A DNA stretch of 36,942 nt from Escherichia phage T7, in the sequence record MZ318361; one strand, written 5' to 3'. Positions 1 to 31,945 of this stretch are shown here, piece by piece. The notes under the pieces were generated by a model that saw nothing but the letters and a program-made list of their open reading frames with translations, was not told the DNA's origin and made no database searches. Position 1 is the stretch's first letter; the number at the start of each line of letters is the position of its first letter. The position numbers and the translations under genes were made by a program.

Positions 1-160
1 TCTCACAGTGTACGGACCTAAAGTTCCCCCATAGGGGGTACCTAAAGCCCAGCCAATCACCTAAAGTCAACCTTCGGTTGACCTTGAGGGTTCCCTAAGG
101 GTTGGGGATGACCCTTGGGTTTGTCTTTGGGTGTTACCTTGAGTGTCTCTCTGTGTCCCT
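1..160. repeat. T7 left terminal direct repeat (partner copy lies just beyond the window end)
   Basis: Recognised T7 terminal redundancy, TCTCACAGTGTACGG... to ...CTGTGTCCCT; second copy not in window so repetition is not directly visible. Confidence 0.7.
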
Positions 161-174
161 ATCTGTTACAGTCT

Positions 175-340
175 CCTAAAGTATCCTCCTAAAGTCACCT
201 CCTAACGTCCATCCTAAAGCCAACACCTAAAGCCTACACCTAAAGACCCATCAAGTCAACGCCTATCTTAAAGTTTAAACATAAAGACCAGACCTAAAGA
301 CCAGACCTAAAGACACTACATAAAGACCAGACCTAAAGAC
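175..340. repeat. Array of imperfect CCTAAAG-type heptamer repeats (left-end concatemer junction / packaging region)
   Basis: CCTAAAG / ACCTAAAGAC motif recurs about 12 times with short spacers. Confidence 0.8.
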
Positions 341-387
341 GCCTTGTTGTTAGCCATAAAGTGATAACCTTTAATCATTGTCTTTAT

Positions 388-410
388 TAATACAACTCAC
401 TATAAGGAGA
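388..410 (+). promoter_or_regulatory. T7 RNAP promoter phiOL
   Basis: TAATACAACTCACTATAAGGAGA, one mismatch to the 23-bp T7 consensus. Confidence 0.85.
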
Positions 411-461
411 GACAACTTAAAGAGACTTAAAAGATTAATTTAAAATTTATCAAAAAGAGTA

Positions 462-498
462 TTGACTTAAAGTCTAACCTATAGGATACTTACAGCCA
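462..498 (+). promoter_or_regulatory. Host sigma70-type early promoter A1
   Basis: TTGACT at 462-467, 17-bp spacer, GATACT at 485-490; recognised T7 A1 context. Confidence 0.75.
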
Positions 499-578
499 TC
501 GAGAGGGACACGGCGAATAGCCATCCCAATCGACACCGGGGTCAACCGGATAAGTAGACAGCCTGATAAGTCGCACGA

Positions 579-932
579 CAGAAAGAAATTGACCGCGCTA
601 AGGCCCGTAAAGAACGTCACGAGGGGCGCTTAGAGGCACGCAGATTCAAACGTCGCAACCGCAAGGCACGTAAAGCACACAAAGCTAAGCGCGAAAGAAT
701 GCTTGCTGCGTGGCGATGGGCTGAACGTCAAGAACGGCGTAACCATGAGGTAGCTGTAGATGTACTAGGAAGAACCAATAACGCTATGCTCTGGGTCAAC
801 ATGTTCTCTGGGGACTTTAAGGCGCTTGAGGAACGAATCGCGCTGCACTGGCGTAATGCTGACCGGATGGCTATCGCTAATGGTCTTACGCTCAACATTG
901 ATAAGCAACTTGACGCAATGTTAATGGGCTGA
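579..932 (+). pseudogene. gp0.7: 3' remnant of gene 0.7 (protein kinase / host shutoff), C-terminal ~117 codons with no native start
   Basis: Open frame translating ...[114 protein letters not shown], which I recognise as the gp0.7 C-terminus; upstream portion absent. Confidence 0.75.
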
Positions 933-934
933 TA

Positions 935-1000
935 GTCTTATCTTACAGGTCATCTGCGGGTGGCCTGAATAGGTACGATTTACTAACTGGAAGAGGCACT
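935..1000 (+). promoter_or_regulatory. Probable RNase III processing site R1 upstream of gene 1
   Basis: Position between 0.7 stop and gene 1 start; hairpin-capable sequence; assignment from known T7 organisation. Confidence 0.4.
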
Positions 1001-1002
1001 AA

Positions 1003-3654
1003 ATGAACACGATTAACATCGCTAAGAACGACTTCTCTGACATCGAACTGGCTGCTATCCCGTTCAACACTCTGGCTGACCATTACGGTGAGCGTTTAGC
1101 TCGCGAACAGTTGGCCCTTGAGCATGAGTCTTACGAGATGGGTGAAGCACGCTTCCGCAAGATGTTTGAGCGTCAACTTAAAGCTGGTGAGGTTGCGGAT
1201 AACGCTGCCGCCAAGCCTCTCATCACTACCCTACTCCCTAAGATGATTGCACGCATCAACGACTGGTTTGAGGAAGTGAAAGCTAAGCGCGGCAAGCGCC
1301 CGACAGCCTTCCAGTTCCTGCAAGAAATCAAGCCGGAAGCCGTAGCGTACATCACCATTAAGACCACTCTGGCTTGCCTAACCAGTGCTGACAATACAAC
1401 CGTTCAGGCTGTAGCAAGCGCAATCGGTCGGGCCATTGAGGACGAGGCTCGCTTCGGTCGTATCCGTGACCTTGAAGCTAAGCACTTCAAGAAAAACGTT
1501 GAGGAACAACTCAACAAGCGCGTAGGGCACGTCTACAAGAAAGCATTTATGCAAGTTGTCGAGGCTGACATGCTCTCTAAGGGTCTACTCGGTGGCGAGG
1601 CGTGGTCTTCGTGGCATAAGGAAGACTCTATTCATGTAGGAGTACGCTGCATCGAGATGCTCATTGAGTCAACCGGAATGGTTAGCTTACACCGCCAAAA
1701 TGCTGGCGTAGTAGGTCAAGACTCTGAGACTATCGAACTCGCACCTGAATACGCTGAGGCTATCGCAACCCGTGCAGGTGCGCTGGCTGGCATCTCTCCG
1801 ATGTTCCAACCTTGCGTAGTTCCTCCTAAGCCGTGGACTGGCATTACTGGTGGTGGCTATTGGGCTAACGGTCGTCGTCCTCTGGCGCTGGTGCGTACTC
1901 ACAGTAAGAAAGCACTGATGCGCTACGAAGACGTTTACATGCCTGAGGTGTACAAAGCGATTAACATTGCGCAAAACACCGCATGGAAAATCAACAAGAA
2001 AGTCCTAGCGGTCGCCAACGTAATCACCAAGTGGAAGCATTGTCCGGTCGAGGACATCCCTGCGATTGAGCGTGAAGAACTCCCGATGAAACCGGAAGAC
2101 ATCGACATGAATCCTGAGGCTCTCACCGCGTGGAAACGTGCTGCCGCTGCTGTGTACCGCAAGGACAAGGCTCGCAAGTCTCGCCGTATCAGCCTTGAGT
2201 TCATGCTTGAGCAAGCCAATAAGTTTGCTAACCATAAGGCCATCTGGTTCCCTTACAACATGGACTGGCGCGGTCGTGTTTACGCTGTGTCAATGTTCAA
2301 CCCGCAAGGTAACGATATGACCAAAGGACTGCTTACGCTGGCGAAAGGTAAACCAATCGGTAAGGAAGGTTACTACTGGCTGAAAATCCACGGTGCAAAC
2401 TGTGCGGGTGTCGATAAGGTTCCGTTCCCTGAGCGCATCAAGTTCATTGAGGAAAACCACGAGAACATCATGGCTTGCGCTAAGTCTCCACTGGAGAACA
2501 CTTGGTGGGCTGAGCAAGATTCTCCGTTCTGCTTCCTTGCGTTCTGCTTTGAGTACGCTGGGGTACAGCACCACGGCCTGAGCTATAACTGCTCCCTTCC
2601 GCTGGCGTTTGACGGGTCTTGCTCTGGCATCCAGCACTTCTCCGCGATGCTCCGAGATGAGGTAGGTGGTCGCGCGGTTAACTTGCTTCCTAGTGAAACC
2701 GTTCAGGACATCTACGGGATTGTTGCTAAGAAAGTCAACGAGATTCTACAAGCAGACGCAATCAATGGGACCGATAACGAAGTAGTTACCGTGACCGATG
2801 AGAACACTGGTGAAATCTCTGAGAAAGTCAAGCTGGGCACTAAGGCACTGGCTGGTCAATGGCTGGCTTACGGTGTTACTCGCAGTGTGACTAAGCGTTC
2901 AGTCATGACGCTGGCTTACGGGTCCAAAGAGTTCGGCTTCCGTCAACAAGTGCTGGAAGATACCATTCAGCCAGCTATTGATTCCGGCAAGGGTCTGATG
3001 TTCACTCAGCCGAATCAGGCTGCTGGATACATGGCTAAGCTGATTTGGGAATCTGTGAGCGTGACGGTGGTAGCTGCGGTTGAAGCAATGAACTGGCTTA
3101 AGTCTGCTGCTAAGCTGCTGGCTGCTGAGGTCAAAGATAAGAAGACTGGAGAGATTCTTCGCAAGCGTTGCGCTGTGCATTGGGTAACTCCTGATGGTTT
3201 CCCTGTGTGGCAGGAATACAAGAAGCCTATTCAGACGCGCTTGAACCTGATGTTCCTCGGTCAGTTCCGCTTACAGCCTACCATTAACACCAACAAAGAT
3301 AGCGAGATTGATGCACACAAACAGGAGTCTGGTATCGCTCCTAACTTTGTACACAGCCAAGACGGTAGCCACCTTCGTAAGACTGTAGTGTGGGCACACG
3401 AGAAGTACGGAATCGAATCTTTTGCACTGATTCACGACTCCTTCGGTACCATTCCGGCTGACGCTGCGAACCTGTTCAAAGCAGTGCGCGAAACTATGGT
3501 TGACACATATGAGTCTTGTGATGTACTGGCTGATTTCTACGACCAGTTCGCTGACCAGTTGCACGAGTCTCAATTGGACAAAATGCCAGCACTTCCGGCT
3601 AAAGGTAACTTGAACTTCCGTGACATCTTAGAGTCGGACTTCGCGTTCGCGTAA
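1003..3654 (+). CDS. gp1: T7 RNA polymerase
   Basis: 883-aa ORF beginning MNTINIAKNDFSDIELAAIPFNTLADHYGERLAREQLALEHESYEMGEARFRKMF and ending ...FAFA; recognised single-subunit RNAP. Confidence 0.98.
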   Translation: MNTINIAKNDFSDIELAAIPFNTLADHYGERLAREQLALEHESYEMGEARFRKMFERQLKAGEVADNAAAKPLITTLLPKMIARINDWFEEVKAKRGKRPTAFQFLQEIKPEAVAYITIKTTLACLTSADNTTVQAVASAIGRAIEDEARFGRIRDLEAKHFKKNVEEQLNKRVGHVYKKAFMQVVEADMLSKGLLGGEAWSSWHKEDSIHVGVRCIEMLIESTGMVSLHRQNAGVVGQDSETIELAPEYAEAIATRAGALAGISPMFQPCVVPPKPWTGITGGGYWANGRRPLALVRTHSKKALMRYEDVYMPEVYKAINIAQNTAWKINKKVLAVANVITKWKHCPVEDIPAIEREELPMKPEDIDMNPEALTAWKRAAAAVYRKDKARKSRRISLEFMLEQANKFANHKAIWFPYNMDWRGRVYAVSMFNPQGNDMTKGLLTLAKGKPIGKEGYYWLKIHGANCAGVDKVPFPERIKFIEENHENIMACAKSPLENTWWAEQDSPFCFLAFCFEYAGVQHHGLSYNCSLPLAFDGSCSGIQHFSAMLRDEVGGRAVNLLPSETVQDIYGIVAKKVNEILQADAINGTDNEVVTVTDENTGEISEKVKLGTKALAGQWLAYGVTRSVTKRSVMTLAYGSKEFGFRQQVLEDTIQPAIDSGKGLMFTQPNQAAGYMAKLIWESVSVTVVAAVEAMNWLKSAAKLLAAEVKDKKTGEILRKRCAVHWVTPDGFPVWQEYKKPIQTRLNLMFLGQFRLQPTINTNKDSEIDAHKQESGIAPNFVHSQDGSHLRKTVVWAHEKYGIESFALIHDSFGTIPADAANLFKAVRETMVDTYESCDVLADFYDQFADQLHESQLDKMPALPAKGNLNFRDILESDFAFA

Positions 3655-3662
3655 CGCCAAAT

Positions 3663-3685
3663 CAATACGACTCACTATAGAGGGA
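3663..3685 (+). promoter_or_regulatory. T7 promoter phi1.1A
   Basis: CAATACGACTCACTATAGAGGGA. Confidence 0.85.
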
Positions 3686-3692
3686 CAAACTC

Positions 3693-3729
3693 AAGGTCAT
3701 TCGCAAGAGTGGCCTTTATGATTGACCTT
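3693..3729 (+). promoter_or_regulatory. Probable RNase III site R1.1 hairpin
   Basis: AAGGTCA ... TGACCTT inverted repeat between phi1.1A and phi1.1B. Confidence 0.45.
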
Positions 3730-3737
3730 CTTCCGGT

Positions 3738-3760
3738 TAATACGACTCACTATAGGAGAA
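3738..3760 (+). promoter_or_regulatory. T7 promoter phi1.1B
   Basis: TAATACGACTCACTATAGGAGAA. Confidence 0.85.
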
Positions 3761-3838
3761 CCTTAAGGTTTAACTTTAAGACCCTTAAGTGTTAATTAGA
3801 GATTTAAATTAAAGAATTACTAAGAGAGGACTTTAAGT

Positions 3839-3967
3839 ATGCGTAACTTCGAAAAGATGACCAAACGTTCTAACCGTAATGCTCGTGACTTCGAGGCAAC
3901 CAAAGGTCGCAAGTTGAATAAGACTAAGCGTGACCGCTCTCACAAGCGTAGCTGGGAGGGTCAGTAA
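3839..3967 (+). CDS. gp1.1: Gene 1.1 small basic protein
   Basis: 42-aa ORF MRNFEKMTKRSNRNARDFEATKGRKLNKTKRDRSHKRSWEGQ; below ORF-track size cutoff, found by reading the sequence. Confidence 0.8.
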   Translation: MRNFEKMTKRSNRNARDFEATKGRKLNKTKRDRSHKRSWEGQ

Positions 3968-3968
3968 G

Positions 3969-4226
3969 ATGGGACGTTTATATAGTGGTAATCTGGCAGC
4001 ATTCAAGGCAGCAACAAACAAGCTGTTCCAGTTAGACTTAGCGGTCATTTATGATGACTGGTATGATGCCTATACAAGAAAAGATTGCATACGGTTACGT
4101 ATTGAGGACAGGAGTGGAAACCTGATTGATACTAGCACCTTCTACCACCACGACGAGGACGTTCTGTTCAATATGTGTACTGATTGGTTGAACCATATGT
4201 ATGACCAGTTGAAGGACTGGAAGTAA
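3969..4226 (+). CDS. gp1.2: Gene 1.2 (host dGTPase inhibitor)
   Basis: 85-aa ORF from MGRLYSGNLAAFKAATNKLFQ; start is the internal Met of the 98-aa track ORF, 1 nt after the 1.1 stop. Confidence 0.85.
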   Translation: MGRLYSGNLAAFKAATNKLFQLDLAVIYDDWYDAYTRKDCIRLRIEDRSGNLIDTSTFYHHDEDVLFNMCTDWLNHMYDQLKDWK

Positions 4227-4246
4227 TACGACTCAGTATAGGGACA
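4224..4246 (+). promoter_or_regulatory. T7 promoter phi1.3
   Basis: TAATACGACTCAGTATAGGGACA. Confidence 0.8.
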
Positions 4247-4306
4247 ATGCTTAAGGTCGCTCTCTAGGAGTGGCCTTAGTCATTTAACCAATAGGAGATA
4301 AACATT

Positions 4307-5386
4307 ATGATGAACATTAAGACTAACCCGTTTAAAGCCGTGTCTTTCGTAGAGTCTGCCATTAAGAAGGCTCTGGATAACGCTGGGTATCTTATCGCTG
4401 AAATCAAGTACGATGGTGTACGCGGGAACATCTGCGTAGACAATACTGCTAACAGTTACTGGCTCTCTCGTGTATCTAAAACGATTCCGGCACTGGAGCA
4501 CTTAAACGGGTTTGATGTTCGCTGGAAGCGTCTACTGAACGATGACCGTTGCTTCTACAAAGATGGCTTTATGCTTGATGGGGAACTCATGGTCAAGGGC
4601 GTAGACTTTAACACAGGGTCCGGCCTACTGCGTACCAAATGGACTGACACGAAGAACCAAGAGTTCCATGAAGAGTTATTCGTTGAACCAATCCGTAAGA
4701 AAGATAAAGTTCCCTTTAAGCTGCACACTGGACACCTTCACATAAAACTGTACGCTATCCTTCCGCTGCACATCGTGGAGTCTGGAGAAGACTGTGATGT
4801 CATGACGTTGCTCATGCAGGAACACGTTAAGAACATGCTGCCTCTGCTACAGGAATACTTCCCTGAAATCGAATGGCAAGCGGCTGAATCTTACGAGGTC
4901 TACGATATGGTAGAACTACAGCAACTGTACGAGCAGAAGCGAGCAGAAGGCCATGAGGGTCTCATTGTGAAAGACCCGATGTGTATCTATAAGCGCGGTA
5001 AGAAATCTGGCTGGTGGAAAATGAAACCTGAGAACGAAGCTGACGGTATCATTCAGGGTCTGGTATGGGGTACAAAAGGTCTGGCTAATGAAGGTAAAGT
5101 GATTGGTTTTGAGGTGCTTCTTGAGAGTGGTCGTTTAGTTAACGCCACGAATATCTCTCGCGCCTTAATGGATGAGTTCACTGAGACAGTAAAAGAGGCC
5201 ACCCTAAGTCAATGGGGATTCTTTAGCCCATACGGTATTGGCGACAACGATGCTTGTACTATTAACCCTTACGATGGCTGGGCGTGTCAAATTAGCTACA
5301 TGGAGGAAACACCTGATGGCTCTTTGCGGCACCCATCGTTCGTAATGTTCCGTGGCACCGAGGACAACCCTCAAGAGAAAATGTAA
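4307..5386 (+). CDS. gp1.3: ATP-dependent DNA ligase
   Basis: 359-aa ORF; adenylation-site motif in LIAEIKYDGVRG. Confidence 0.95.
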   Translation: MMNIKTNPFKAVSFVESAIKKALDNAGYLIAEIKYDGVRGNICVDNTANSYWLSRVSKTIPALEHLNGFDVRWKRLLNDDRCFYKDGFMLDGELMVKGVDFNTGSGLLRTKWTDTKNQEFHEELFVEPIRKKDKVPFKLHTGHLHIKLYAILPLHIVESGEDCDVMTLLMQEHVKNMLPLLQEYFPEIEWQAAESYEVYDMVELQQLYEQKRAEGHEGLIVKDPMCIYKRGKKSGWWKMKPENEADGIIQGLVWGTKGLANEGKVIGFEVLLESGRLVNATNISRALMDEFTETVKEATLSQWGFFSPYGIGDNDACTINPYDGWACQISYMEETPDGSLRHPSFVMFRGTEDNPQEKM

Positions 5387-5393
5387 TCACACT

Positions 5394-5424
5394 GGCTCAC
5401 CTTCGGGTGGGCCTTTCTGCGTTT
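5394..5424 (+). terminator. Early-region intrinsic terminator TE
   Basis: GGCTCACC-TTCG-GGTGGGCC hairpin followed by a T-rich run right after the ligase stop. Confidence 0.8.
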
Positions 5425-5439
5425 ATAAGGAGACACTTT

Positions 5440-5592
5440 ATGTTTAAGAAGGTTGGTAAATTCCTTGCGGCTTTGGCAGCTATCCTGACGCTTGCGTATA
5501 TTCTTGCGGTATACCCTCAAGTAGCACTAGTAGTTGGCGCTTGTTACTTAGCGGCAGTGTGTGCTTGCGTGTGGAGTATAGTTAACTGGTAA
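5440..5592 (+). CDS. gp1.4: Gene 1.4 small hydrophobic protein
   Basis: ORF MFKKVGKFLAALAAILTLAYILAVYPQVALVVGACYLAAVCACVWSIVNW. Confidence 0.75.
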   Translation: MFKKVGKFLAALAAILTLAYILAVYPQVALVVGACYLAAVCACVWSIVNW

Positions 5593-5612
5593 TACGACTC
5601 ACTAAAGGAGGT
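5590..5612 (+). promoter_or_regulatory. T7 promoter phi1.5
   Basis: TAATACGACTCACTAAAGGAGGT. Confidence 0.85.
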
Positions 5613-5619
5613 ACACACC

Positions 5620-5709
5620 ATGATGTACTTAATGCCATTACTCATCGTCATTGTAGGATGCCTTGCGCTCCACTGTAGCGATGATGATATGCCAGATGGT
5701 CACGCTTAA
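5620..5709 (+). CDS. gp1.5: Gene 1.5 small protein
   Basis: 29-aa ORF MMYLMPLLIVIVGCLALHCSDDDMPDGHA right after phi1.5. Confidence 0.7.
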   Translation: MMYLMPLLIVIVGCLALHCSDDDMPDGHA

Positions 5710-5729
5710 TACGACTCACTAAAGGAGAC
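5707..5729 (+). promoter_or_regulatory. T7 promoter phi1.6
   Basis: TAATACGACTCACTAAAGGAGAC. Confidence 0.85.
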
Positions 5730-5734
5730 ACTAT

Positions 5735-5995
5735 ATGTTTCGACTTCATTACAACAAAAGCGTTAAGAATTTCACGGTTCGCCGTGCTGACCGTTCAATC
5801 GTATGTGCGAGCGAGCGCCGAGCTAAGATACCTCTTATTGGTAACACAGTTCCTTTGGCACCGAGCGTCCACATCATTATCACCCGTGGTGACTTTGAGA
5901 AAGCAATAGACAAGAAACGTCCGGTTCTTAGTGTGGCAGTGACTCGCTTCCCGTTCGTCCGTCTGTTACTCAAACGAATCAAGGAGGTGTTCTGA
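5735..5995 (+). CDS. gp1.6: Gene 1.6 protein
   Basis: 86-aa ORF downstream of phi1.6 with AGGAG Shine-Dalgarno. Confidence 0.8.
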
Positions 5996-6577
5996 TGGGA
6001 CTGTTAGATGGTGAAGCCTGGGAAAAAGAAAACCCGCCAGTACAAGCAACTGGGTGTATAGCTTGCTTAGAGAAAGATGACCGTTATCCACACACCTGTA
6101 ACAAAGGAGCTAACGATATGACCGAACGTGAACAAGAGATGATCATTAAGTTGATAGACAATAATGAAGGTCGCCCAGATGATTTGAATGGCTGCGGTAT
6201 TCTCTGCTCCAATGTCCCTTGCCACCTCTGCCCCGCAAATAACGATCAAAAAATAACCTTAGGTGAAATCCGAGCGATGGACCCACGTAAACCACATCTG
6301 AATAAACCTGAGGTAACTCCTACAGATGACCAGCCTTCCGCTGAGACAATCGAAGGTGTCACTAAGCCTTCCCACTACATGCTGTTTGACGACATTGAGG
6401 CTATCGAAGTGATTGCTCGTTCAATGACCGTTGAGCAGTTCAAGGGATACTGCTTCGGTAACATCTTAAAGTACAGACTACGTGCTGGTAAGAAGTCAGA
6501 GTTAGCGTACTTAGAGAAAGACCTAGCGAAAGCAGACTTCTATAAAGAACTCTTTGAGAAACATAAGGATAAATGTT

Positions 6578-6585
<8 letters not shown>
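5995..6585 (+). CDS. gp1.7: Gene 1.7 nucleotide kinase
   Basis: 196-aa ORF; ATGA overlap with the 1.6 stop. Confidence 0.85.
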
Positions 6586-6918
<333 letters not shown>

Positions 6919-6921
<3 letters not shown>

Positions 6922-6941
6922 TACGACTCACTATTAGGGAA
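6919..6941 (+). promoter_or_regulatory. T7 promoter phi2.5
   Basis: TAATACGACTCACTATTAGGGAA. Confidence 0.8.
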
Positions 6942-6986
6942 GACTCCCTCTGAGAAACCAAACGAAACCTAAAGGAGATTAACATT

Positions 6987-7685
6987 ATGGCTAAGAAGAT
7001 TTTCACCTCTGCGCTGGGTACCGCTGAACCTTACGCTTACATCGCCAAGCCGGACTACGGCAACGAAGAGCGTGGCTTTGGGAACCCTCGTGGTGTCTAT
7101 AAAGTTGACCTGACTATTCCCAACAAAGACCCGCGCTGCCAGCGTATGGTCGATGAAATCGTGAAGTGTCACGAAGAGGCTTATGCTGCTGCCGTTGAGG
7201 AATACGAAGCTAATCCACCTGCTGTAGCTCGTGGTAAGAAACCGCTGAAACCGTATGAGGGTGACATGCCGTTCTTCGATAACGGTGACGGTACGACTAC
7301 CTTTAAGTTCAAATGCTACGCGTCTTTCCAAGACAAGAAGACCAAAGAGACCAAGCACATCAATCTGGTTGTGGTTGACTCAAAAGGTAAGAAGATGGAA
7401 GACGTTCCGATTATCGGTGGTGGCTCTAAGCTGAAAGTTAAATATTCTCTGGTTCCATACAAGTGGAACACTGCTGTAGGTGCGAGCGTTAAGCTGCAAC
7501 TGGAATCCGTGATGCTGGTCGAACTGGCTACCTTTGGTGGCGGTGAAGACGATTGGGCTGACGAAGTTGAAGAGAACGGCTATGTTGCCTCTGGTTCTGC
7601 CAAAGCGAGCAAACCACGCGACGAAGAAAGCTGGGACGAAGACGACGAAGAGTCCGAGGAAGCAGACGAAGACGGAGACTTCTAA
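6987..7685 (+). CDS. gp2.5: Single-stranded DNA-binding protein
   Basis: 232-aa ORF with the characteristic acidic C-terminal tail ...DEDDEESEEADEDGDF. Confidence 0.95.
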   Translation: MAKKIFTSALGTAEPYAYIAKPDYGNEERGFGNPRGVYKVDLTIPNKDPRCQRMVDEIVKCHEEAYAAAVEEYEANPPAVARGKKPLKPYEGDMPFFDNGDGTTTFKFKCYASFQDKKTKETKHINLVVVDSKGKKMEDVPIIGGGSKLKVKYSLVPYKWNTAVGASVKLQLESVMLVELATFGGGEDDWADEVEENGYVASGSAKASKPRDEESWDEDDEESEEADEDGDF

Positions 7686-8105
7686 GTGGAACTGCGGGAG
7701 AAAATCCTTGAGCGAATCAAGGTGACTTCCTCTGGGTGTTGGGAGTGGCAGGGCGCTACGAACAATAAAGGGTACGGGCAGGTGTGGTGCAGCAATACCG
7801 GAAAGGTTGTCTACTGTCATCGCGTAATGTCTAATGCTCCGAAAGGTTCTACCGTCCTGCACTCCTGTGATAATCCATTATGTTGTAACCCTGAACACCT
7901 ATCCATAGGAACTCCAAAAGAGAACTCCACTGACATGGTAAATAAGGGTCGCTCACACAAGGGGTATAAACTTTCAGACGAAGACGTAATGGCAATCATG
8001 GAATCCAGCGAGTCCAATGTATCCTTAGCTCGCACCTATGGTGTCTCCCAACAGACTATTTGTGATATACGCAAAGGGAGGCGACATGGCAGGTTACGGC
8101 GCTAA
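7686..8105 (+). CDS. gp2.8: Gene 2.8 HNH-endonuclease-like protein
   Basis: 139-aa ORF with GTG start; GCWEWQG...KGYG...H...HSCDNPLCCNPEHL motif, paralogous to gene 7.7. Confidence 0.8.
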   Translation: MELREKILERIKVTSSGCWEWQGATNNKGYGQVWCSNTGKVVYCHRVMSNAPKGSTVLHSCDNPLCCNPEHLSIGTPKENSTDMVNKGRSHKGYKLSDEDVMAIMESSESNVSLARTYGVSQQTICDIRKGRRHGRLRR

Positions 8106-8534
8106 AGGAATCCGAAAGGTTGGAGCGTTTCGCTCTGGCCTAGAGGACAAGGTTTCAAAGCAGTTGGAATCAAAAGGTATTAAATTCGAGTATGAAGAGT
8201 GGAAAGTGCCTTATGTAATTCCGGCGAGCAATCACACTTACACTCCAGACTTCTTACTTCCAAACGGTATATTCGTTGAGACAAAGGGTCTGTGGGAAAG
8301 CGATGATAGAAAGAAGCACTTATTAATTAGGGAGCAGCACCCCGAGCTAGACATCCGTATTGTCTTCTCAAGCTCACGTACTAAGTTATACAAAGGTTCT
8401 CCAACGTCTTATGGAGAGTTCTGCGAAAAGCATGGTATTAAGTTCGCTGATAAACTGATACCTGCTGAGTGGATAAAGGAACCCAAGAAGGAGGTCCCCT
8501 TTGATAGATTAAAAAGGAAAGGAGGAAAGAAATA

Positions 8535-8535
<1 letters not shown>
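8086..8535 (+). CDS. gp3: Endonuclease I (Holliday-junction resolvase)
   Basis: 149-aa ORF from MAGYGAKGIRKVGAFRSGLEDKVSKQLE; track ORF starts further upstream at a non-native Met. Confidence 0.9.
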
Positions 8536-10799
<2,264 letters not shown>

Positions 10800-10802
<3 letters not shown>

Positions 10803-10822
10803 TACGACTCACTAAAGGAGAC
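10800..10822 (+). promoter_or_regulatory. T7 promoter phi4.3
   Basis: TAATACGACTCACTAAAGGAGAC. Confidence 0.85.
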
Positions 10823-10827
10823 ACACC

Positions 10828-11040
10828 ATGTTCAAACTGATTAAGAAGTTAGGCCAACTGCTGGTTCGTATGTACAACGTGGAAGCCAAGCGACTGAACG
10901 ATGAGGCTCGTAAAGAGGCCACACAGTCACGCGCTCTGGCGATTCGCTCCAACGAACTGGCTGACAGTGCATCCACTAAAGTTACCGAGGCTGCCCGTGT
11001 GGCAAACCAAGCTCAACAGCTTTCCAAATTCTTTGAGTAA
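10828..11040 (+). CDS. gp4.3: Gene 4.3 protein
   Basis: 70-aa ORF just downstream of phi4.3. Confidence 0.8.
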   Translation: MFKLIKKLGQLLVRMYNVEAKRLNDEARKEATQSRALAIRSNELADSASTKVTEAARVANQAQQLSKFFE

Positions 11041-11059
11041 TCAAACAGGAGAAACCATT

Positions 11060-11329
11060 ATGTCTAACGTAGCTGAAACTATCCGTCTATCCGATACAGC
11101 TGACCAGTGGAACCGTCGAGTCCACATCAACGTTCGCAACGGTAAGGCGACTATGGTTTACCGCTGGAAGGACTCTAAGTCCTCTAAGAATCACACTCAG
11201 CGTATGACGTTGACAGATGAGCAAGCACTGCGTCTGGTCAATGCGCTTACCAAAGCTGCCGTGACAGCAATTCATGAAGCTGGTCGCGTCAATGAAGCTA
11301 TGGCTATCCTCGACAAGATTGATAACTAA
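11060..11329 (+). CDS. gp4.5: Gene 4.5 protein
   Basis: 89-aa ORF from MSNVAETIRLSDTADQWNRRVHINV; AGGAG Shine-Dalgarno. Confidence 0.85.
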   Translation: MSNVAETIRLSDTADQWNRRVHINVRNGKATMVYRWKDSKSSKNHTQRMTLTDEQALRLVNALTKAAVTAIHEAGRVNEAMAILDKIDN

Positions 11330-21545: not shown

Positions 21546-21584
21546 CCCCTTGGGGCCTCTAAACGGGTCTTGAGGGGTTTTTTG
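21546..21584 (+). terminator. T7 RNAP terminator Tphi
   Basis: CCCCTTGGGGCCTCTAAACGGGTCTTGAGGGGTTTTTTG hairpin plus U-run. Confidence 0.9.
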
Positions 21585-21601
21585 CTGAAAGGAGGAACTA
21601 T

Positions 21602-22192
21602 ATGCGCTCATACGATATGAACGTTGAGACTGCCGCTGAGTTATCAGCTGTGAACGACATTCTGGCGTCTATCGGTGAACCTCCGGTATCAACGCTGGAA
21701 GGTGACGCTAACGCAGATGCAGCGAACGCTCGGCGTATTCTCAACAAGATTAACCGACAGATTCAATCTCGTGGATGGACGTTCAACATTGAGGAAGGCA
21801 TAACGCTACTACCTGATGTTTACTCCAACCTGATTGTATACAGTGACGACTATTTATCCCTAATGTCTACTTCCGGTCAATCCATCTACGTTAACCGAGG
21901 TGGCTATGTGTATGACCGAACGAGTCAATCAGACCGCTTTGACTCTGGTATTACTGTGAACATTATTCGTCTCCGCGACTACGATGAGATGCCTGAGTGC
22001 TTCCGTTACTGGATTGTCACCAAGGCTTCCCGTCAGTTCAACAACCGATTCTTTGGGGCACCGGAAGTAGAGGGTGTACTCCAAGAAGAGGAAGATGAGG
22101 CTAGACGTCTCTGCATGGAGTATGAGATGGACTACGGTGGGTACAATATGCTGGATGGAGATGCGTTCACTTCTGGTCTACTGACTCGCTAA
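21602..22192 (+). CDS. gp11: Tail tubular protein A
   Basis: 196-aa [24 protein letters not shown]... Confidence 0.95.
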
Positions 22193-22215
22193 CATTAATA
22201 AATAAGGAGGCTCTA

Positions 22216-24600
22216 ATGGCACTCATTAGCCAATCAATCAAGAACTTGAAGGGTGGTATCAGCCAACAGCCTGACATCCTTCGTTATCCAGACCAAGGGT
22301 CACGCCAAGTTAACGGTTGGTCTTCGGAGACCGAGGGCCTCCAAAAGCGTCCACCTCTTGTTTTCTTAAATACACTTGGAGACAACGGTGCGTTAGGTCA
22401 AGCTCCGTACATCCACCTGATTAACCGAGATGAGCACGAACAGTATTACGCTGTGTTCACTGGTAGCGGAATCCGAGTGTTCGACCTTTCTGGTAACGAG
22501 AAGCAAGTTAGGTATCCTAACGGTTCCAACTACATCAAGACCGCTAATCCACGTAACGACCTGCGAATGGTTACTGTAGCAGACTATACGTTCATCGTTA
22601 ACCGTAACGTTGTTGCACAGAAGAACACAAAGTCTGTCAACTTACCGAATTACAACCCTAATCAAGACGGATTGATTAACGTTCGTGGTGGTCAGTATGG
22701 TAGGGAACTAATTGTACACATTAACGGTAAAGACGTTGCGAAGTATAAGATACCAGATGGTAGTCAACCTGAACACGTAAACAATACGGATGCCCAATGG
22801 TTAGCTGAAGAGTTAGCCAAGCAGATGCGCACTAACTTGTCTGATTGGACTGTAAATGTAGGGCAAGGGTTCATCCATGTGACCGCACCTAGTGGTCAAC
22901 AGATTGACTCCTTCACGACTAAAGATGGCTACGCAGACCAGTTGATTAACCCTGTGACCCACTACGCTCAGTCGTTCTCTAAGCTGCCACCTAATGCTCC
23001 TAACGGCTACATGGTGAAAATCGTAGGGGACGCCTCTAAGTCTGCCGACCAGTATTACGTTCGGTATGACGCTGAGCGGAAAGTTTGGACTGAGACTTTA
23101 GGTTGGAACACTGAGGACCAAGTTCTATGGGAAACCATGCCACACGCTCTTGTGCGAGCCGCTGACGGTAATTTCGACTTCAAGTGGCTTGAGTGGTCTC
23201 CTAAGTCTTGTGGTGACGTTGACACCAACCCTTGGCCTTCTTTTGTTGGTTCAAGTATTAACGATGTGTTCTTCTTCCGTAACCGCTTAGGATTCCTTAG
23301 TGGGGAGAACATCATATTGAGTCGTACAGCCAAATACTTCAACTTCTACCCTGCGTCCATTGCGAACCTTAGTGATGACGACCCTATAGACGTAGCTGTG
23401 AGTACCAACCGAATAGCAATCCTTAAGTACGCCGTTCCGTTCTCAGAAGAGTTACTCATCTGGTCCGATGAAGCACAATTCGTCCTGACTGCCTCGGGTA
23501 CTCTCACATCTAAGTCGGTTGAGTTGAACCTAACGACCCAGTTTGACGTACAGGACCGAGCGAGACCTTTTGGGATTGGGCGTAATGTCTACTTTGCTAG
23601 TCCGAGGTCCAGCTTCACGTCCATCCACAGGTACTACGCTGTGCAGGATGTCAGTTCCGTTAAGAATGCTGAGGACATTACATCACACGTTCCTAACTAC
23701 ATCCCTAATGGTGTGTTCAGTATTTGCGGAAGTGGTACGGAAAACTTCTGTTCGGTACTATCTCACGGGGACCCTAGTAAAATCTTCATGTACAAATTCC
23801 TGTACCTGAACGAAGAGTTAAGGCAACAGTCGTGGTCTCATTGGGACTTTGGGGAAAACGTACAGGTTCTAGCTTGTCAGAGTATCAGCTCAGATATGTA
23901 TGTGATTCTTCGCAATGAGTTCAATACGTTCCTAGCTAGAATCTCTTTCACTAAGAACGCCATTGACTTACAGGGAGAACCCTATCGTGCCTTTATGGAC
24001 ATGAAGATTCGATACACGATTCCTAGTGGAACATACAACGATGACACATTCACTACCTCTATTCATATTCCAACAATTTATGGTGCAAACTTCGGGAGGG
24101 GCAAAATCACTGTATTGGAGCCTGATGGTAAGATAACCGTGTTTGAGCAACCTACGGCTGGGTGGAATAGCGACCCTTGGCTGAGACTCAGCGGTAACTT
24201 GGAGGGACGCATGGTGTACATTGGGTTCAACATTAACTTCGTATATGAGTTCTCTAAGTTCCTCATCAAGCAGACTGCCGACGACGGGTCTACCTCCACG
24301 GAAGACATTGGGCGCTTACAGTTACGCCGAGCGTGGGTTAACTACGAGAACTCTGGTACGTTTGACATTTATGTTGAGAACCAATCGTCTAACTGGAAGT
24401 ACACAATGGCTGGTGCCCGATTAGGCTCTAACACTCTGAGGGCTGGGAGACTGAACTTAGGGACCGGACAATATCGATTCCCTGTGGTTGGTAACGCCAA
24501 GTTCAACACTGTATACATCTTGTCAGATGAGACTACCCCTCTGAACATCATTAGGTGTGGCTGGGAAGGTAACTACTTACGGAGAAGTTCCGGTATTTAA
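22216..24600 (+). CDS. gp12: Tail tubular protein B
   Basis: 794-aa ORF. Confidence 0.95.
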   Translation: MALISQSIKNLKGGISQQPDILRYPDQGSRQVNGWSSETEGLQKRPPLVFLNTLGDNGALGQAPYIHLINRDEHEQYYAVFTGSGIRVFDLSGNEKQVRYPNGSNYIKTANPRNDLRMVTVADYTFIVNRNVVAQKNTKSVNLPNYNPNQDGLINVRGGQYGRELIVHINGKDVAKYKIPDGSQPEHVNNTDAQWLAEELAKQMRTNLSDWTVNVGQGFIHVTAPSGQQIDSFTTKDGYADQLINPVTHYAQSFSKLPPNAPNGYMVKIVGDASKSADQYYVRYDAERKVWTETLGWNTEDQVLWETMPHALVRAADGNFDFKWLEWSPKSCGDVDTNPWPSFVGSSINDVFFFRNRLGFLSGENIILSRTAKYFNFYPASIANLSDDDPIDVAVSTNRIAILKYAVPFSEELLIWSDEAQFVLTASGTLTSKSVELNLTTQFDVQDRARPFGIGRNVYFASPRSSFTSIHRYYAVQDVSSVKNAEDITSHVPNYIPNGVFSICGSGTENFCSVLSHGDPSKIFMYKFLYLNEELRQQSWSHWDFGENVQVLACQSISSDMYVILRNEFNTFLARISFTKNAIDLQGEPYRAFMDMKIRYTIPSGTYNDDTFTTSIHIPTIYGANFGRGKITVLEPDGKITVFEQPTAGWNSDPWLRLSGNLEGRMVYIGFNINFVYEFSKFLIKQTADDGSTSTEDIGRLQLRRAWVNYENSGTFDIYVENQSSNWKYTMAGARLGSNTLRAGRLNLGTGQYRFPVVGNAKFNTVYILSDETTPLNIIRCGWEGNYLRRSSGI

Positions 24601-24630
24601 TTAAATATTCTCCCTGTGGTGGCTCGAAAT

Positions 24631-24653
24631 TAATACGACTCACTATAGGGAGA
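24631..24653 (+). promoter_or_regulatory. T7 promoter phi13 (perfect consensus)
   Basis: TAATACGACTCACTATAGGGAGA. Confidence 0.9.
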
Positions 24654-24680
24654 ACAATACGACTACGGGAGGGTTTTCTT

Positions 24681-25097
24681 ATGATGACTATAAGACCTAC
24701 TAAAAGTACAGACTTTGAGGTATTCACTCCGGCTCACCATGACATTCTTGAAGCTAAGGCTGCTGGTATTGAGCCGAGTTTCCCTGATGCTTCCGAGTGT
24801 GTCACGTTGAGCCTCTATGGGTTCCCTCTAGCTATCGGTGGTAACTGCGGGGACCAGTGCTGGTTCGTTACGAGCGACCAAGTGTGGCGACTTAGTGGAA
24901 AGGCTAAGCGAAAGTTCCGTAAGTTAATCATGGAGTATCGCGATAAGATGCTTGAGAAGTATGATACTCTTTGGAATTACGTATGGGTAGGCAATACGTC
25001 CCACATTCGTTTCCTCAAGACTATCGGTGCGGTATTCCATGAAGAGTACACACGAGATGGTCAATTTCAGTTATTTACAATCACGAAAGGAGGATAA
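24681..25097 (+). CDS. gp13: Gene 13 internal virion / assembly protein
   Basis: 138-aa ORF. Confidence 0.9.
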   Translation: MMTIRPTKSTDFEVFTPAHHDILEAKAAGIEPSFPDASECVTLSLYGFPLAIGGNCGDQCWFVTSDQVWRLSGKAKRKFRKLIMEYRDKMLEKYDTLWNYVWVGNTSHIRFLKTIGAVFHEEYTRDGQFQLFTITKGG

Positions 25098-25101
25098 CCA
25101 T

Positions 25102-25692
25102 ATGTGTTGGGCAGCCGCAATACCTATCGCTATATCTGGCGCTCAGGCTATCAGTGGTCAGAACGCTCAGGCCAAAATGATTGCCGCTCAGACCGCTGCT
25201 GGTCGTCGTCAAGCTATGGAAATCATGAGGCAGACGAACATCCAGAATGCTGACCTATCGTTGCAAGCTCGAAGTAAACTTGAGGAAGCGTCCGCCGAGT
25301 TGACCTCACAGAACATGCAGAAGGTCCAAGCTATTGGGTCTATCCGAGCGGCTATCGGAGAGAGTATGCTTGAAGGTTCCTCAATGGACCGCATTAAGCG
25401 AGTCACAGAAGGACAGTTCATTCGGGAAGCCAATATGGTAACTGAGAACTATCGCCGTGACTACCAAGCAATCTTCGCACAGCAACTTGGTGGTACTCAA
25501 AGTGCTGCAAGTCAGATTGACGAAATCTATAAGAGCGAACAGAAACAGAAGAGTAAGCTACAGATGGTTCTGGACCCACTGGCTATCATGGGGTCTTCCG
25601 CTGCGAGTGCTTACGCATCCGGTGCGTTCGACTCTAAGTCCACAACTAAGGCACCTATTGTTGCCGCTAAAGGAACCAAGACGGGGAGGTAA
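25102..25692 (+). CDS. gp14: Internal virion protein B
   Basis: 196-aa ORF from MCWAAAIPIAISGAQAISGQ; AGGA Shine-Dalgarno. Confidence 0.9.
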   Translation: MCWAAAIPIAISGAQAISGQNAQAKMIAAQTAAGRRQAMEIMRQTNIQNADLSLQARSKLEEASAELTSQNMQKVQAIGSIRAAIGESMLEGSSMDRIKRVTEGQFIREANMVTENYRRDYQAIFAQQLGGTQSAASQIDEIYKSEQKQKSKLQMVLDPLAIMGSSAASAYASGAFDSKSTTKAPIVAAKGTKTGR

Positions 25693-25698
25693 TGAGCT

Positions 25699-27942
25699 AT
25701 GAGTAAAATTGAATCTGCCCTTCAAGCGGCACAACCGGGACTCTCTCGGTTACGTGGTGGTGCTGGAGGTATGGGCTATCGTGCAGCAACCACTCAGGCC
25801 GAACAGCCAAGGTCAAGCCTATTGGACACCATTGGTCGGTTCGCTAAGGCTGGTGCCGATATGTATACCGCTAAGGAACAACGAGCACGAGACCTAGCTG
25901 ATGAACGCTCTAACGAGATTATCCGTAAGCTGACCCCTGAGCAACGTCGAGAAGCTCTCAACAACGGGACCCTTCTGTATCAGGATGACCCATACGCTAT
26001 GGAAGCACTCCGAGTCAAGACTGGTCGTAACGCTGCGTATCTTGTGGACGATGACGTTATGCAGAAGATAAAAGAGGGTGTCTTCCGTACTCGCGAAGAG
26101 ATGGAAGAGTATCGCCATAGTCGCCTTCAAGAGGGCGCTAAGGTATACGCTGAGCAGTTCGGCATCGACCCTGAGGACGTTGATTATCAGCGTGGTTTCA
26201 ACGGGGACATTACCGAGCGTAACATCTCGCTGTATGGTGCGCATGATAACTTCTTGAGCCAGCAAGCTCAGAAGGGCGCTATCATGAACAGCCGAGTGGA
26301 ACTCAACGGTGTCCTTCAAGACCCTGATATGCTGCGTCGTCCAGACTCTGCTGACTTCTTTGAGAAGTATATCGACAACGGTCTGGTTACTGGCGCAATC
26401 CCATCTGATGCTCAAGCCACACAGCTTATAAGCCAAGCGTTCAGTGACGCTTCTAGCCGTGCTGGTGGTGCTGACTTCCTGATGCGAGTCGGTGACAAGA
26501 AGGTAACACTTAACGGAGCCACTACGACTTACCGAGAGTTGATTGGTGAGGAACAGTGGAACGCTCTCATGGTCACAGCACAACGTTCTCAGTTTGAGAC
26601 TGACGCGAAGCTGAACGAGCAGTATCGCTTGAAGATTAACTCTGCGCTGAACCAAGAGGACCCAAGGACAGCTTGGGAGATGCTTCAAGGTATCAAGGCT
26701 GAACTAGATAAGGTCCAACCTGATGAGCAGATGACACCACAACGTGAGTGGCTAATCTCCGCACAGGAACAAGTTCAGAATCAGATGAACGCATGGACGA
26801 AAGCTCAGGCCAAGGCTCTGGACGATTCCATGAAGTCAATGAACAAACTTGACGTAATCGACAAGCAATTCCAGAAGCGAATCAACGGTGAGTGGGTCTC
26901 AACGGATTTTAAGGATATGCCAGTCAACGAGAACACTGGTGAGTTCAAGCATAGCGATATGGTTAACTACGCCAATAAGAAGCTCGCTGAGATTGACAGT
27001 ATGGACATTCCAGACGGTGCCAAGGATGCTATGAAGTTGAAGTACCTTCAAGCGGACTCTAAGGACGGAGCATTCCGTACAGCCATCGGAACCATGGTCA
27101 CTGACGCTGGTCAAGAGTGGTCTGCCGCTGTGATTAACGGTAAGTTACCAGAACGAACCCCAGCTATGGATGCTCTGCGCAGAATCCGCAATGCTGACCC
27201 TCAGTTGATTGCTGCGCTATACCCAGACCAAGCTGAGCTATTCCTGACGATGGATATGATGGACAAGCAGGGTATTGACCCTCAGGTTATTCTTGATGCC
27301 GACCGACTGACTGTTAAGCGGTCCAAAGAGCAACGCTTTGAGGATGATAAAGCATTCGAGTCTGCACTGAATGCATCTAAGGCTCCTGAGATTGCCCGTA
27401 TGCCAGCGTCACTGCGCGAATCTGCACGTAAGATTTATGACTCCGTTAAGTATCGCTCGGGGAACGAAAGCATGGCTATGGAGCAGATGACCAAGTTCCT
27501 TAAGGAATCTACCTACACGTTCACTGGTGATGATGTTGACGGTGATACCGTTGGTGTGATTCCTAAGAATATGATGCAGGTTAACTCTGACCCGAAATCA
27601 TGGGAGCAAGGTCGGGATATTCTGGAGGAAGCACGTAAGGGAATCATTGCGAGCAACCCTTGGATAACCAATAAGCAACTGACCATGTATTCTCAAGGTG
27701 ACTCCATTTACCTTATGGACACCACAGGTCAAGTCAGAGTCCGATACGACAAAGAGTTACTCTCGAAGGTCTGGAGTGAGAACCAGAAGAAACTCGAAGA
27801 GAAAGCTCGTGAGAAGGCTCTGGCTGATGTGAACAAGCGAGCACCTATAGTTGCCGCTACGAAGGCCCGTGAAGCTGCTGCTAAACGAGTCCGAGAGAAA
27901 CGTAAACAGACTCCTAAGTTCATCTACGGACGTAAGGAGTAA
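25699..27942 (+). CDS. gp15: Internal virion protein C
   Basis: 747-aa ORF. Confidence 0.95.
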   Translation: MSKIESALQAAQPGLSRLRGGAGGMGYRAATTQAEQPRSSLLDTIGRFAKAGADMYTAKEQRARDLADERSNEIIRKLTPEQRREALNNGTLLYQDDPYAMEALRVKTGRNAAYLVDDDVMQKIKEGVFRTREEMEEYRHSRLQEGAKVYAEQFGIDPEDVDYQRGFNGDITERNISLYGAHDNFLSQQAQKGAIMNSRVELNGVLQDPDMLRRPDSADFFEKYIDNGLVTGAIPSDAQATQLISQAFSDASSRAGGADFLMRVGDKKVTLNGATTTYRELIGEEQWNALMVTAQRSQFETDAKLNEQYRLKINSALNQEDPRTAWEMLQGIKAELDKVQPDEQMTPQREWLISAQEQVQNQMNAWTKAQAKALDDSMKSMNKLDVIDKQFQKRINGEWVSTDFKDMPVNENTGEFKHSDMVNYANKKLAEIDSMDIPDGAKDAMKLKYLQADSKDGAFRTAIGTMVTDAGQEWSAAVINGKLPERTPAMDALRRIRNADPQLIAALYPDQAELFLTMDMMDKQGIDPQVILDADRLTVKRSKEQRFEDDKAFESALNASKAPEIARMPASLRESARKIYDSVKYRSGNESMAMEQMTKFLKESTYTFTGDDVDGDTVGVIPKNMMQVNSDPKSWEQGRDILEEARKGIIASNPWITNKQLTMYSQGDSIYLMDTTGQVRVRYDKELLSKVWSENQKKLEEKAREKALADVNKRAPIVAATKAREAAAKRVREKRKQTPKFIYGRKE

Positions 27943-27968
27943 CTAAAGGCTACATAAGGAGGCCCTAA

Positions 27969-30900
27969 ATGGATAAGTACGATAAGAACGTACCAAGTGA
28001 TTATGATGGTCTGTTCCAAAAGGCTGCTGATGCCAACGGGGTCTCTTATGACCTTTTACGTAAAGTCGCTTGGACAGAATCACGATTTGTGCCTACAGCA
28101 AAATCTAAGACTGGACCATTAGGCATGATGCAATTTACCAAGGCAACCGCTAAGGCCCTCGGTCTGCGAGTTACCGATGGTCCAGACGACGACCGACTGA
28201 ACCCTGAGTTAGCTATTAATGCTGCCGCTAAGCAACTTGCAGGTCTGGTAGGGAAGTTTGATGGCGATGAACTCAAAGCTGCCCTTGCGTACAACCAAGG
28301 CGAGGGACGCTTGGGTAATCCACAACTTGAGGCGTACTCTAAGGGAGACTTCGCATCAATCTCTGAGGAGGGACGTAACTACATGCGTAACCTTCTGGAT
28401 GTTGCTAAGTCACCTATGGCTGGACAGTTGGAAACTTTTGGTGGCATAACCCCAAAGGGTAAAGGCATTCCGGCTGAGGTAGGATTGGCTGGAATTGGTC
28501 ACAAGCAGAAAGTAACACAGGAACTTCCTGAGTCCACAAGTTTTGACGTTAAGGGTATCGAACAGGAGGCTACGGCGAAACCATTCGCCAAGGACTTTTG
28601 GGAGACCCACGGAGAAACACTTGACGAGTACAACAGTCGTTCAACCTTCTTCGGATTCAAAAATGCTGCCGAAGCTGAACTCTCCAACTCAGTCGCTGGG
28701 ATGGCTTTCCGTGCTGGTCGTCTCGATAATGGTTTTGATGTGTTTAAAGACACCATTACGCCGACTCGCTGGAACTCTCACATCTGGACTCCAGAGGAGT
28801 TAGAGAAGATTCGAACAGAGGTTAAGAACCCTGCGTACATCAACGTTGTAACTGGTGGTTCCCCTGAGAACCTCGATGACCTCATTAAATTGGCTAACGA
28901 GAACTTTGAGAATGACTCCCGCGCTGCCGAGGCTGGCCTAGGTGCCAAACTGAGTGCTGGTATTATTGGTGCTGGTGTGGACCCGCTTAGCTATGTTCCT
29001 ATGGTCGGTGTCACTGGTAAGGGCTTTAAGTTAATCAATAAGGCTCTTGTAGTTGGTGCCGAAAGTGCTGCTCTGAACGTTGCATCCGAAGGTCTCCGTA
29101 CCTCCGTAGCTGGTGGTGACGCAGACTATGCGGGTGCTGCCTTAGGTGGCTTTGTGTTTGGCGCAGGCATGTCTGCAATCAGTGACGCTGTAGCTGCTGG
29201 ACTGAAACGCAGTAAACCAGAAGCTGAGTTCGACAATGAGTTCATCGGTCCTATGATGCGATTGGAAGCCCGTGAGACAGCACGAAACGCCAACTCTGCG
29301 GACCTCTCTCGGATGAACACTGAGAACATGAAGTTTGAAGGTGAACATAATGGTGTCCCTTATGAGGACTTACCAACAGAGAGAGGTGCCGTGGTGTTAC
29401 ATGATGGCTCCGTTCTAAGTGCAAGCAACCCAATCAACCCTAAGACTCTAAAAGAGTTCTCCGAGGTTGACCCTGAGAAGGCTGCGCGAGGAATCAAACT
29501 GGCTGGGTTCACCGAGATTGGCTTGAAGACCTTGGGGTCTGACGATGCTGACATCCGTAGAGTGGCTATCGACCTCGTTCGCTCTCCTACTGGTATGCAG
29601 TCTGGTGCCTCAGGTAAGTTCGGTGCAACAGCTTCTGACATCCATGAGAGACTTCATGGTACTGACCAGCGTACTTATAATGACTTGTACAAAGCAATGT
29701 CTGACGCTATGAAAGACCCTGAGTTCTCTACTGGCGGCGCTAAGATGTCCCGTGAAGAAACTCGATACACTATCTACCGTAGAGCGGCACTAGCTATTGA
29801 GCGTCCAGAACTACAGAAGGCACTCACTCCGTCTGAGAGAATCGTTATGGACATCATTAAGCGTCACTTTGACACCAAGCGTGAACTTATGGAAAACCCA
29901 GCAATATTCGGTAACACAAAGGCTGTGAGTATCTTCCCTGAGAGTCGCCACAAAGGTACTTACGTTCCTCACGTATATGACCGTCATGCCAAGGCGCTGA
30001 TGATTCAACGCTACGGTGCCGAAGGTTTGCAGGAAGGGATTGCCCGCTCATGGATGAACAGCTACGTCTCCAGACCTGAGGTCAAGGCCAGAGTCGATGA
30101 GATGCTTAAGGAATTACACGGGGTGAAGGAAGTAACACCAGAGATGGTAGAGAAGTACGCTATGGATAAGGCTTATGGTATCTCCCACTCAGACCAGTTC
30201 ACCAACAGTTCCATAATAGAAGAGAACATTGAGGGCTTAGTAGGTATCGAGAATAACTCATTCCTTGAGGCACGTAACTTGTTTGATTCGGACCTATCCA
30301 TCACTATGCCAGACGGACAGCAATTCTCAGTGAATGACCTAAGGGACTTCGATATGTTCCGCATCATGCCAGCGTATGACCGCCGTGTCAATGGTGACAT
30401 CGCCATCATGGGGTCTACTGGTAAAACCACTAAGGAACTTAAGGATGAGATTTTGGCTCTCAAAGCGAAAGCTGAGGGAGACGGTAAGAAGACTGGCGAG
30501 GTACATGCTTTAATGGATACCGTTAAGATTCTTACTGGTCGTGCTAGACGCAATCAGGACACTGTGTGGGAAACCTCACTGCGTGCCATCAATGACCTAG
30601 GGTTCTTCGCTAAGAACGCCTACATGGGTGCTCAGAACATTACGGAGATTGCGGGGATGATTGTCACTGGTAACGTTCGTGCTCTAGGGCATGGTATCCC
30701 AATTCTGCGTGATACACTCTACAAGTCTAAACCAGTTTCAGCTAAGGAACTCAAGGAACTCCATGCGTCTCTGTTCGGGAAGGAGGTGGACCAGTTGATT
30801 CGGCCTAAACGTGCTGACATTGTGCAGCGCCTAAGGGAAGCAACTGATACCGGACCTGCCGTGGCGAACATCGTAGGGACCTTGAAGTATTCAACACAGG

Positions 30901-31925: not shown

Positions 31926-31945
31926 TACGACTCACTATAGGGAGA
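31923..31945 (+). promoter_or_regulatory. T7 promoter phi17 (perfect consensus)
   Basis: TAATACGACTCACTATAGGGAGA. Confidence 0.9.

Follow-up and report, generated by a model that had tools for sequence, protein, structure and literature searches.

Early region of the window and the deletion junction

The left end of the window, by which we mean the whole 36,942-nt stretch of DNA analysed here (record MZ318361), carries the left terminal repeat of T7, the E. coli promoter A1, the 3' part of gene 0.7, a short intergenic region and gene 1, which is annotated as encoding the T7 RNA polymerase (Table 1). The window was mapped on the wild-type T7 genome (NC_001604) with blastn, and this yielded five collinear blocks. 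The first is identical to the left end of T7 up to position 578, while the sequence to the right of the junction matches T7 2736-5783 over window 568-3615 with no mismatch, the first mismatch being at window 3616. A base-by-base walk across the junction revealed that identity with the left side runs through window 578 and that identity with the right side (at an offset of 2168) extends back to window 568. The 11 bp belonging to both sides, AAGTCGCACGA, form a direct repeat found at exactly two places in T7, 568-578 and 2736-2746, of which the window has a single copy. The missing early DNA amounts to 2,168 bp and corresponds to T7 579-2746 or, in the equivalent notation, 568-2735. In T7 the 11-mer is part of a 26-nt imperfect repeat of 81% identity with a spacing of 2168 (repeat family D2). 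When compared with NC_001604, the junction contains neither foreign bases nor a restriction-site scar, and gene 1 starts at window 1003 instead of T7 3171, a shift of exactly 2168. The initial annotation of this DNA had called an early-region deletion of about 2.2 kb with a junction near 578-580 and gene 1 moved to 1003 from about 3171 in the wild type. The alignment to NC_001604 that it proposed as a check bears out these positions, the wild type not being contiguous across the junction.

According to the annotation of NC_001604, the missing block includes promoters A2 (626) and A3 (750), genes 0.3 (925-1278), 0.4, 0.5 and 0.6A/B, and the start and codons 1-239 of gene 0.7 (T7 2021-3100). Probing the window with the deleted T7 DNA by blastn returned short chance matches only, and tblastn with gp0.3, 0.4, 0.5 and 0.6A found no match in the whole window (best E = 0.79). 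Annotation, blastn and tblastn thus agree with the earlier proposal that A2 and A3, genes 0.3 to 0.6 and the 5' part of 0.7 have been lost, and the tblastn searches with gp0.3-0.6 confirm that no Ocr, the gene 0.3 product, is encoded elsewhere in the window.

Promoter A1, which had been predicted to survive, is present with both hexamers, and its start at 498 is annotated in NC_001604 as well as in MZ318362. A1 and gene 1 are both intact. A promoter scan of positions 380-1100 recovered A1 as the sole sigma-70-like site; upstream of gene 1 it is the only strong early promoter left, the other survivor being the weak C promoter, annotated at 945 in MZ318362. We also considered that a new promoter had been made at the junction, since TTGACC at 588-593 resembles the -35 hexamer of A2, but rejected this candidate because the scan finds A1 only. 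The ATTGAC motif past the junction is spaced from the repeat just as the -35 element of the deleted A2 was, so that TTGACC takes the place of the A2 TTGACA at the same position, with no -10 element after it. Upstream of gene 1, folding predicts a stem-loop with a 9-bp stem at 946-967 (dG -20.3 kcal/mol, z = -1.8), a candidate for the RNase III site R1. No Rfam family was found in window 1-1300. At the other extremity the window ends at T7 39777 and so has the 160-bp terminal repeat on the left only; this probably reflects the way in which the record was assembled or trimmed.

Table 1. Features of the early region and blastn blocks of the window on T7 (NC_001604)
Feature	Window coordinates	Strand	Correspondence in T7, basis or remark
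Left terminal repeat of T7	1..160	+	100% match to T7 1-160 and 39778-39937
E. coli promoter A1	462..498	+	-35 TTGACT 462-467, -10 GATACT 485-490, start 498
Stop codons TGA TAA in the 0.7 frame	564..569	+	immediately 5' of the kept 0.7 codons (in-frame translation)
Deletion junction, single kept copy of AAGTCGCACGA	568..578	no strand	blastn and base-by-base walk
Gene 0.7 remnant, codons 240-359 and stop	570..932	+	tblastn, phrog_2828; without its own start codon
Only ATG-initiated ORF in the 0.7 frame, 77 aa	699..932	+	starts at Met283 of gp0.7
0.7-gene 1 intergenic region with minor C promoter and stem-loop	935..997	+	identical to T7, offset 2168
Gene 1 (T7 RNA polymerase)	1003..3654	+	883-aa ORF, annotated RNA polymerase; 2168 bp nearer the left end
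blastn block	1-578		T7 1-578 (100%)
blastn block	568-8991		T7 2736-11162
blastn block	8992-21490		T7 11516-24013
blastn block	21535-33717		T7 24160-36343
blastn block	33718-36942		T7 36553-39777

Coding capacity of the gene 0.7 remnant

As had been noted at the outset, the sequence runs directly into the C-terminal codons of gene 0.7: tblastn placed gp0.7 residues 240-359 on window 570-929 at 100% identity. To delimit the domains of gp0.7 we used PHROGs in place of Pfam, which was uninformative for gp0.7 and for the remnant, no Pfam kinase model matching even the full-length protein. PHROG families restricted to the kinase align with gp0.7 residues 6-222 and 68-281, whereas for the remnant the match is confined to positions 242-366 of phrog_2828, the full-length family. 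The kinase catalytic domain is absent, as first proposed. In gp0.7, residues 1-242 make up the kinase domain, which the C-terminal shutoff domain does not need for its own action (PMC13645617); by these limits the remnant spans the whole shutoff domain, yet it lacks a usable start.

The first ATG, GTG or TTG in the 0.7 frame is the ATG at 699. Its predicted anti-Shine-Dalgarno pairing is -0.8 kcal/mol, compared with -5.3 to -11.8 kcal/mol for ten genuine T7 genes, and the ORF that it opens is probably not translated efficiently. The transcript from A1 reaches the junction about 80 nt after its start at 498 and then enters about 360 nt of 0.7 coding sequence. Because TGA TAA stand in frame upstream and ATG 699 is essentially devoid of Shine-Dalgarno pairing, expression of the remnant is likely lost. 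From the sequence alone, we infer that the remnant serves as an untranslated leader: the DNA of the shutoff domain has been kept, but its expression probably has not. The kept segment (570-932) is carried by the abundant A1 transcript. That it is nevertheless translated at a low level in T7Select-based phages, either from Met283 or from a non-canonical start, is very improbable; if true, these phages would make a cryptic fragment, independent of the kinase, that retains some host-shutoff or toxic activity. The initial annotation had held that the phage should lack the early shutoff functions. This is likely for the shutoff that depends on gp0.7, but too broad overall because gene 2, encoding the main inhibitor of the host RNA polymerase, is intact (6727-6921).

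Vector backbone and origin of the deletion

It had also been suggested that the deletion be compared with vector backbones, and this comparison identifies it as that of the commercial T7Select415-1b backbone. T7Select415-1b is a Novagen/Merck vector that was built in the Studier laboratory. PMC8365609 gives T7Select 415-1b as the parent of the holin-deleted phage and credits it with 'two main deletions', one from 579 and one of 11163-11515, and with a cloning site at the 10A end. The window has an early deletion from T7 579 that takes away gene 0.3 through part of 0.7; it also lacks T7 11163-11515 (gene 3.8) at the exact coordinates given in that text, window 8991/8992 being T7 11162/11516. 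In addition, its gene 10 ends in a multiple cloning site near base 21,500, with EcoRI at 21495-21500 and HindIII at 21514-21519. In an unrelated study, Bull and co-workers (2014) used bases 21403-21503 and 21517-21617 of T7Select415-1b as the arms flanking the cloning site, placing it at 21503-21517 (PMC4128545). Since this vendor numbering matches the window coordinates, both upstream deletions must already be in the vendor sequence. We conclude that the gap is very probably the early-region deletion of the T7Select415-1b display vector, which removes T7 579-2746 and was inherited by the holin-deleted derivative. The deletion is a known construct, already documented, and nothing in the region is left unexplained. 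One discrepancy concerns the right end point: the Methods of PMC8365609 print the early deletion as T7 579-2717, 29 bp short of the 2746 found in the deposited sequences and in the window. The printed value does not fit the deposited sequences because gene 1 would then start at 1032, and we take 2717 to be a misprint for 2746.

The same early junction is present in the T7-Δholin records MZ318362 and MZ318363 (T7_del_holin_F10 and F20, grown on BL21), which are 36,942 bp long like the window. Of the records compared, these two derivatives come closest to the vector. T7Select415-1b and its derivative T7-Δholin (MZ318361-MZ318363; PMC8365609) share with the window the 11163-11515 deletion, the gene 10 end with its cloning site and the 17.5 deletion, and the holin-deleted phage propagates on BL21. 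The window differs from MZ318362 (F10) by five SNPs (3125, 13960, 14103, 21473 and 24553) and from MZ318363 (F20) at all three compared sites (3125, 13960 and 14103); at the F10/F20-mutated sites compared, it carries the ancestral allele of NC_001604. The start codon of gene 5.3 (ATG, 13959-13961) is intact in the window and reads AGG in both F10 and F20. With these alleles, the window is probably the unpassaged F1 isolate. Within the phage collection, a 38-mer spanning the junction was contiguous only in MZ318362 and MZ318363; searches of the viral, genome and metagenome contig collections gave no hit, in line with a laboratory origin of the junction. The deletion marks the window as an engineered phage and not a natural T7 variant, so the missing genes should not be read as natural gene loss.

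Several other changes accompany the early deletion. The 353-bp deletion of T7 11163-11515 takes away the phi3.8 promoter together with the greater part of gene 3.8; its junction, TAATGATCT (window 8985-8998), contains GATC, which may stem from ligation of GATC-ended fragments, and the lack of an end repeat in the printed flanks contrasts with the early deletion, for which we favour a repeat-mediated origin (see below). At the 3' end of gene 10 (window 21453-21541), substitutions are clustered at 21453-21475, which we take to be recoding that removes the 10A/10B frameshift site, and GGGGATCCGAATTCGAGCTCCGTCGACAAGCTTGCGGCCGCACTCGAG then replaces the T7 sequence. The cloning site has the order BamHI-EcoRI-SacI-SalI-HindIII-NotI-XhoI; the gene 10 protein has the C-terminus MLGDPNSSSVDKLAAALE and the recoded end with the cloning site reads …GDPNSSSVDKLAAALE, each followed by the stop. 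The holin gene 17.5 has been removed by a precise 209-bp deletion (T7 36344-36552, at window 33717/33718) that puts the ATG of gene 18 in the exact place of the 17.5 GTG start, behind the 17.5 ribosome-binding site. Just past gene 18, at window 33988-33998, the 11-bp CTCGAGAGGAT stands in place of T7 TATACTCAAGG; it introduces an XhoI site next to a BamHI site and is presumably a scar left by the cloning of either the vector or the holin construct. Gene 1.4 shows a 3-bp in-frame deletion (AGT) at window 5535 (T7 7703-7705), and about 20 SNPs relative to NC_001604 are scattered over genes 1, 1.3, 1.6, 1.7, 2, 2.8, 5, 5.5, 6.3, 7, 7.7, 12, 15, 16, 19 and 19.5; both presumably belong to the background of the vector lineage.

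How did the early deletion arise? Both of its ends fall in the 11-bp direct repeat and a single copy has been kept, a pattern that suggests a spontaneous, repeat-mediated origin followed by use as a vector backbone. Slipped replication or short-homology recombination between the two copies of AAGTCGCACGA would leave one copy in place, and the resulting deletion mutant would later have supplied the display vector with its left arm. Beyond the repeat at both wild-type ends, the single kept copy and the lack of foreign bases, the deletion spares the strong early promoter A1 and gene 1 and removes only non-essential genes. A pair of 11-bp repeats in 2.8 kb is only modestly improbable, shuffled sequences giving about one pair of 11-mers, and so the microhomology alone is no proof of mechanism. 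A deletion made on purpose during construction of the vector, whether by recombineering or by restriction and ligation, would be in keeping with the clearly engineered changes in the same genome, namely the synthetic cloning site and the CTCGAGAGGAT substitution after gene 18, and with the gene 3.8 junction, whose repeatless flanks and GATC possibly point to ligation. Such an origin is nonetheless unlikely for the early junction, which bears no scar and no foreign bases, falls exactly in the 11-bp repeat within the 26-nt imperfect repeat, and follows the same repeat pattern as other spontaneous laboratory deletions of T7.

Early-region deletions are often selected during laboratory passage of T7 (PMC6042481), and the present one might have arisen anew while the holin-deleted phage was being constructed or passaged instead of coming from the parent vector. 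This is extremely improbable, as the purchased parent is itself credited with a deletion from 579 in PMC8365609, the vendor cloning-site coordinates (PMC4128545) match the window only if the deletion was already there, and the F10 and F20 records carry the identical junction. That two further records from the same study agree also speaks against an assembly artefact, in which a genome that is wild type here would have been collapsed across the short repeat. The junction does fall inside a repeated 11-mer, but 11 bases are far below the read length, the overall length agrees with the vector when its documented deletions are taken into account, and the deletion has been described independently (PMC4128545, PMC8365609), which leaves such a collapse a virtually negligible chance. 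Spontaneous loss between the repeats, inherited through the vector, is thus the origin that we favour.

Expected consequences and comparison with other T7 mutants

The 2.2 kb freed by the deletion are the reason for its use in a display vector. In the deleted genome, A1 alone among the strong early promoters would drive early transcription, and its transcript would cross some 430 nt of 0.7 remnant, untranslated, before reaching the unaltered sequence ahead of gene 1. With gene 1 lying 2.2 kb nearer the entering genome end, RNA polymerase should be made sooner, and 2.2 kb of packaging room would be gained for inserts. The phage is without gp0.4, gp0.5, gp0.6 and the kinase of gp0.7 and has very probably lost the gp0.7 shutoff activity as well; host shutoff by gp2 would remain.

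The loss of Ocr is expected to make the phage sensitive to type I restriction, because the window keeps four EcoKI and six EcoBI recognition sites. The sensitivity to type I restriction-modification predicted by the initial annotation is further supported by the finding that growth on type I restriction hosts required replacement of the T7Select left end by one with an intact gene 0.3 (PMC4128545). Likewise, the gp0.7 kinase counteracts Retron-Eco9 and DarTG1 (PMC13645617), and its loss should open the phage to both. T7Select-derived phages have neither Ocr nor gp0.4-0.6 nor the T7 kinase. Type I restriction-modification and BREX-type systems should restrict them, and kinase-sensitive defences should act on them more. 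This exposure is relevant wherever T7Select vectors are considered as a therapeutic or biocontrol chassis outside restriction-deficient B strains.

H1 and C74 are known examples of spontaneous early-region deletions of T7. C74 retains gene 0.3 (PMC4128545), which excludes it as the deletion described here. Our literature search found no catalogue name for the latter: PMC11774846 is without genome details, and the matches to D111 and similar candidate names turned out to be amino-acid residue labels, not T7 strains. MZ375235 and PV223880 were likewise considered as carriers of the same deletion and rejected, as theirs is a different one of 1480 bp. In MZ375235 (T7_20L, an independent laboratory clone of T7) it lies between 13-bp repeats, AGGAAGTCGAGGA, at T7 1244 and 2724; the junction repeat of MZ375235.1 is at 1244-1256, and PV223880-PV223883 appear to share the deletion. 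The MZ375235 CDS 925-1620, annotated 'protein kinase', consists of gene 0.3 DNA followed by the 3' part of 0.7 and appears to encode a fusion of gp0.3 with the gp0.7 C-terminus. Its right end point lies within 10 bp of that of the T7Select deletion, at the boundary between kinase and shutoff domain. Another independent deletion, of 1084-3212, was recovered by the Bull laboratory in a UV-selection experiment (PMC6042481), and we find it to be flanked by the 8-bp repeat CTGACATC. That paper, with reference to Studier et al. 1979, describes deletions of the early region as 'typical in other adaptations of T7'.

As in these spontaneous early-region deletions, the losses in the window are confined to non-essential class I genes located between A1 and gene 1, and as in those of MZ375235 (13-bp repeat) and 1084-3212 (8-bp repeat) one copy of a short direct repeat is left at the junction. 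Unlike the other early-region deletions, this one starts upstream of A2 and so takes away A2 and A3, leaving one strong early promoter of three, together with the whole of gene 0.3. With the mutants T7 Δ0.7::cmk and T7K ΔSO (PMC13645617) the window has in common the loss of kinase activity against Retron-Eco9 and DarTG1. Those two are clean single-gene or single-domain mutants, whereas the T7Select-derived genome keeps the DNA of the shutoff domain without a start and has lost genes 0.3-0.6 as well.
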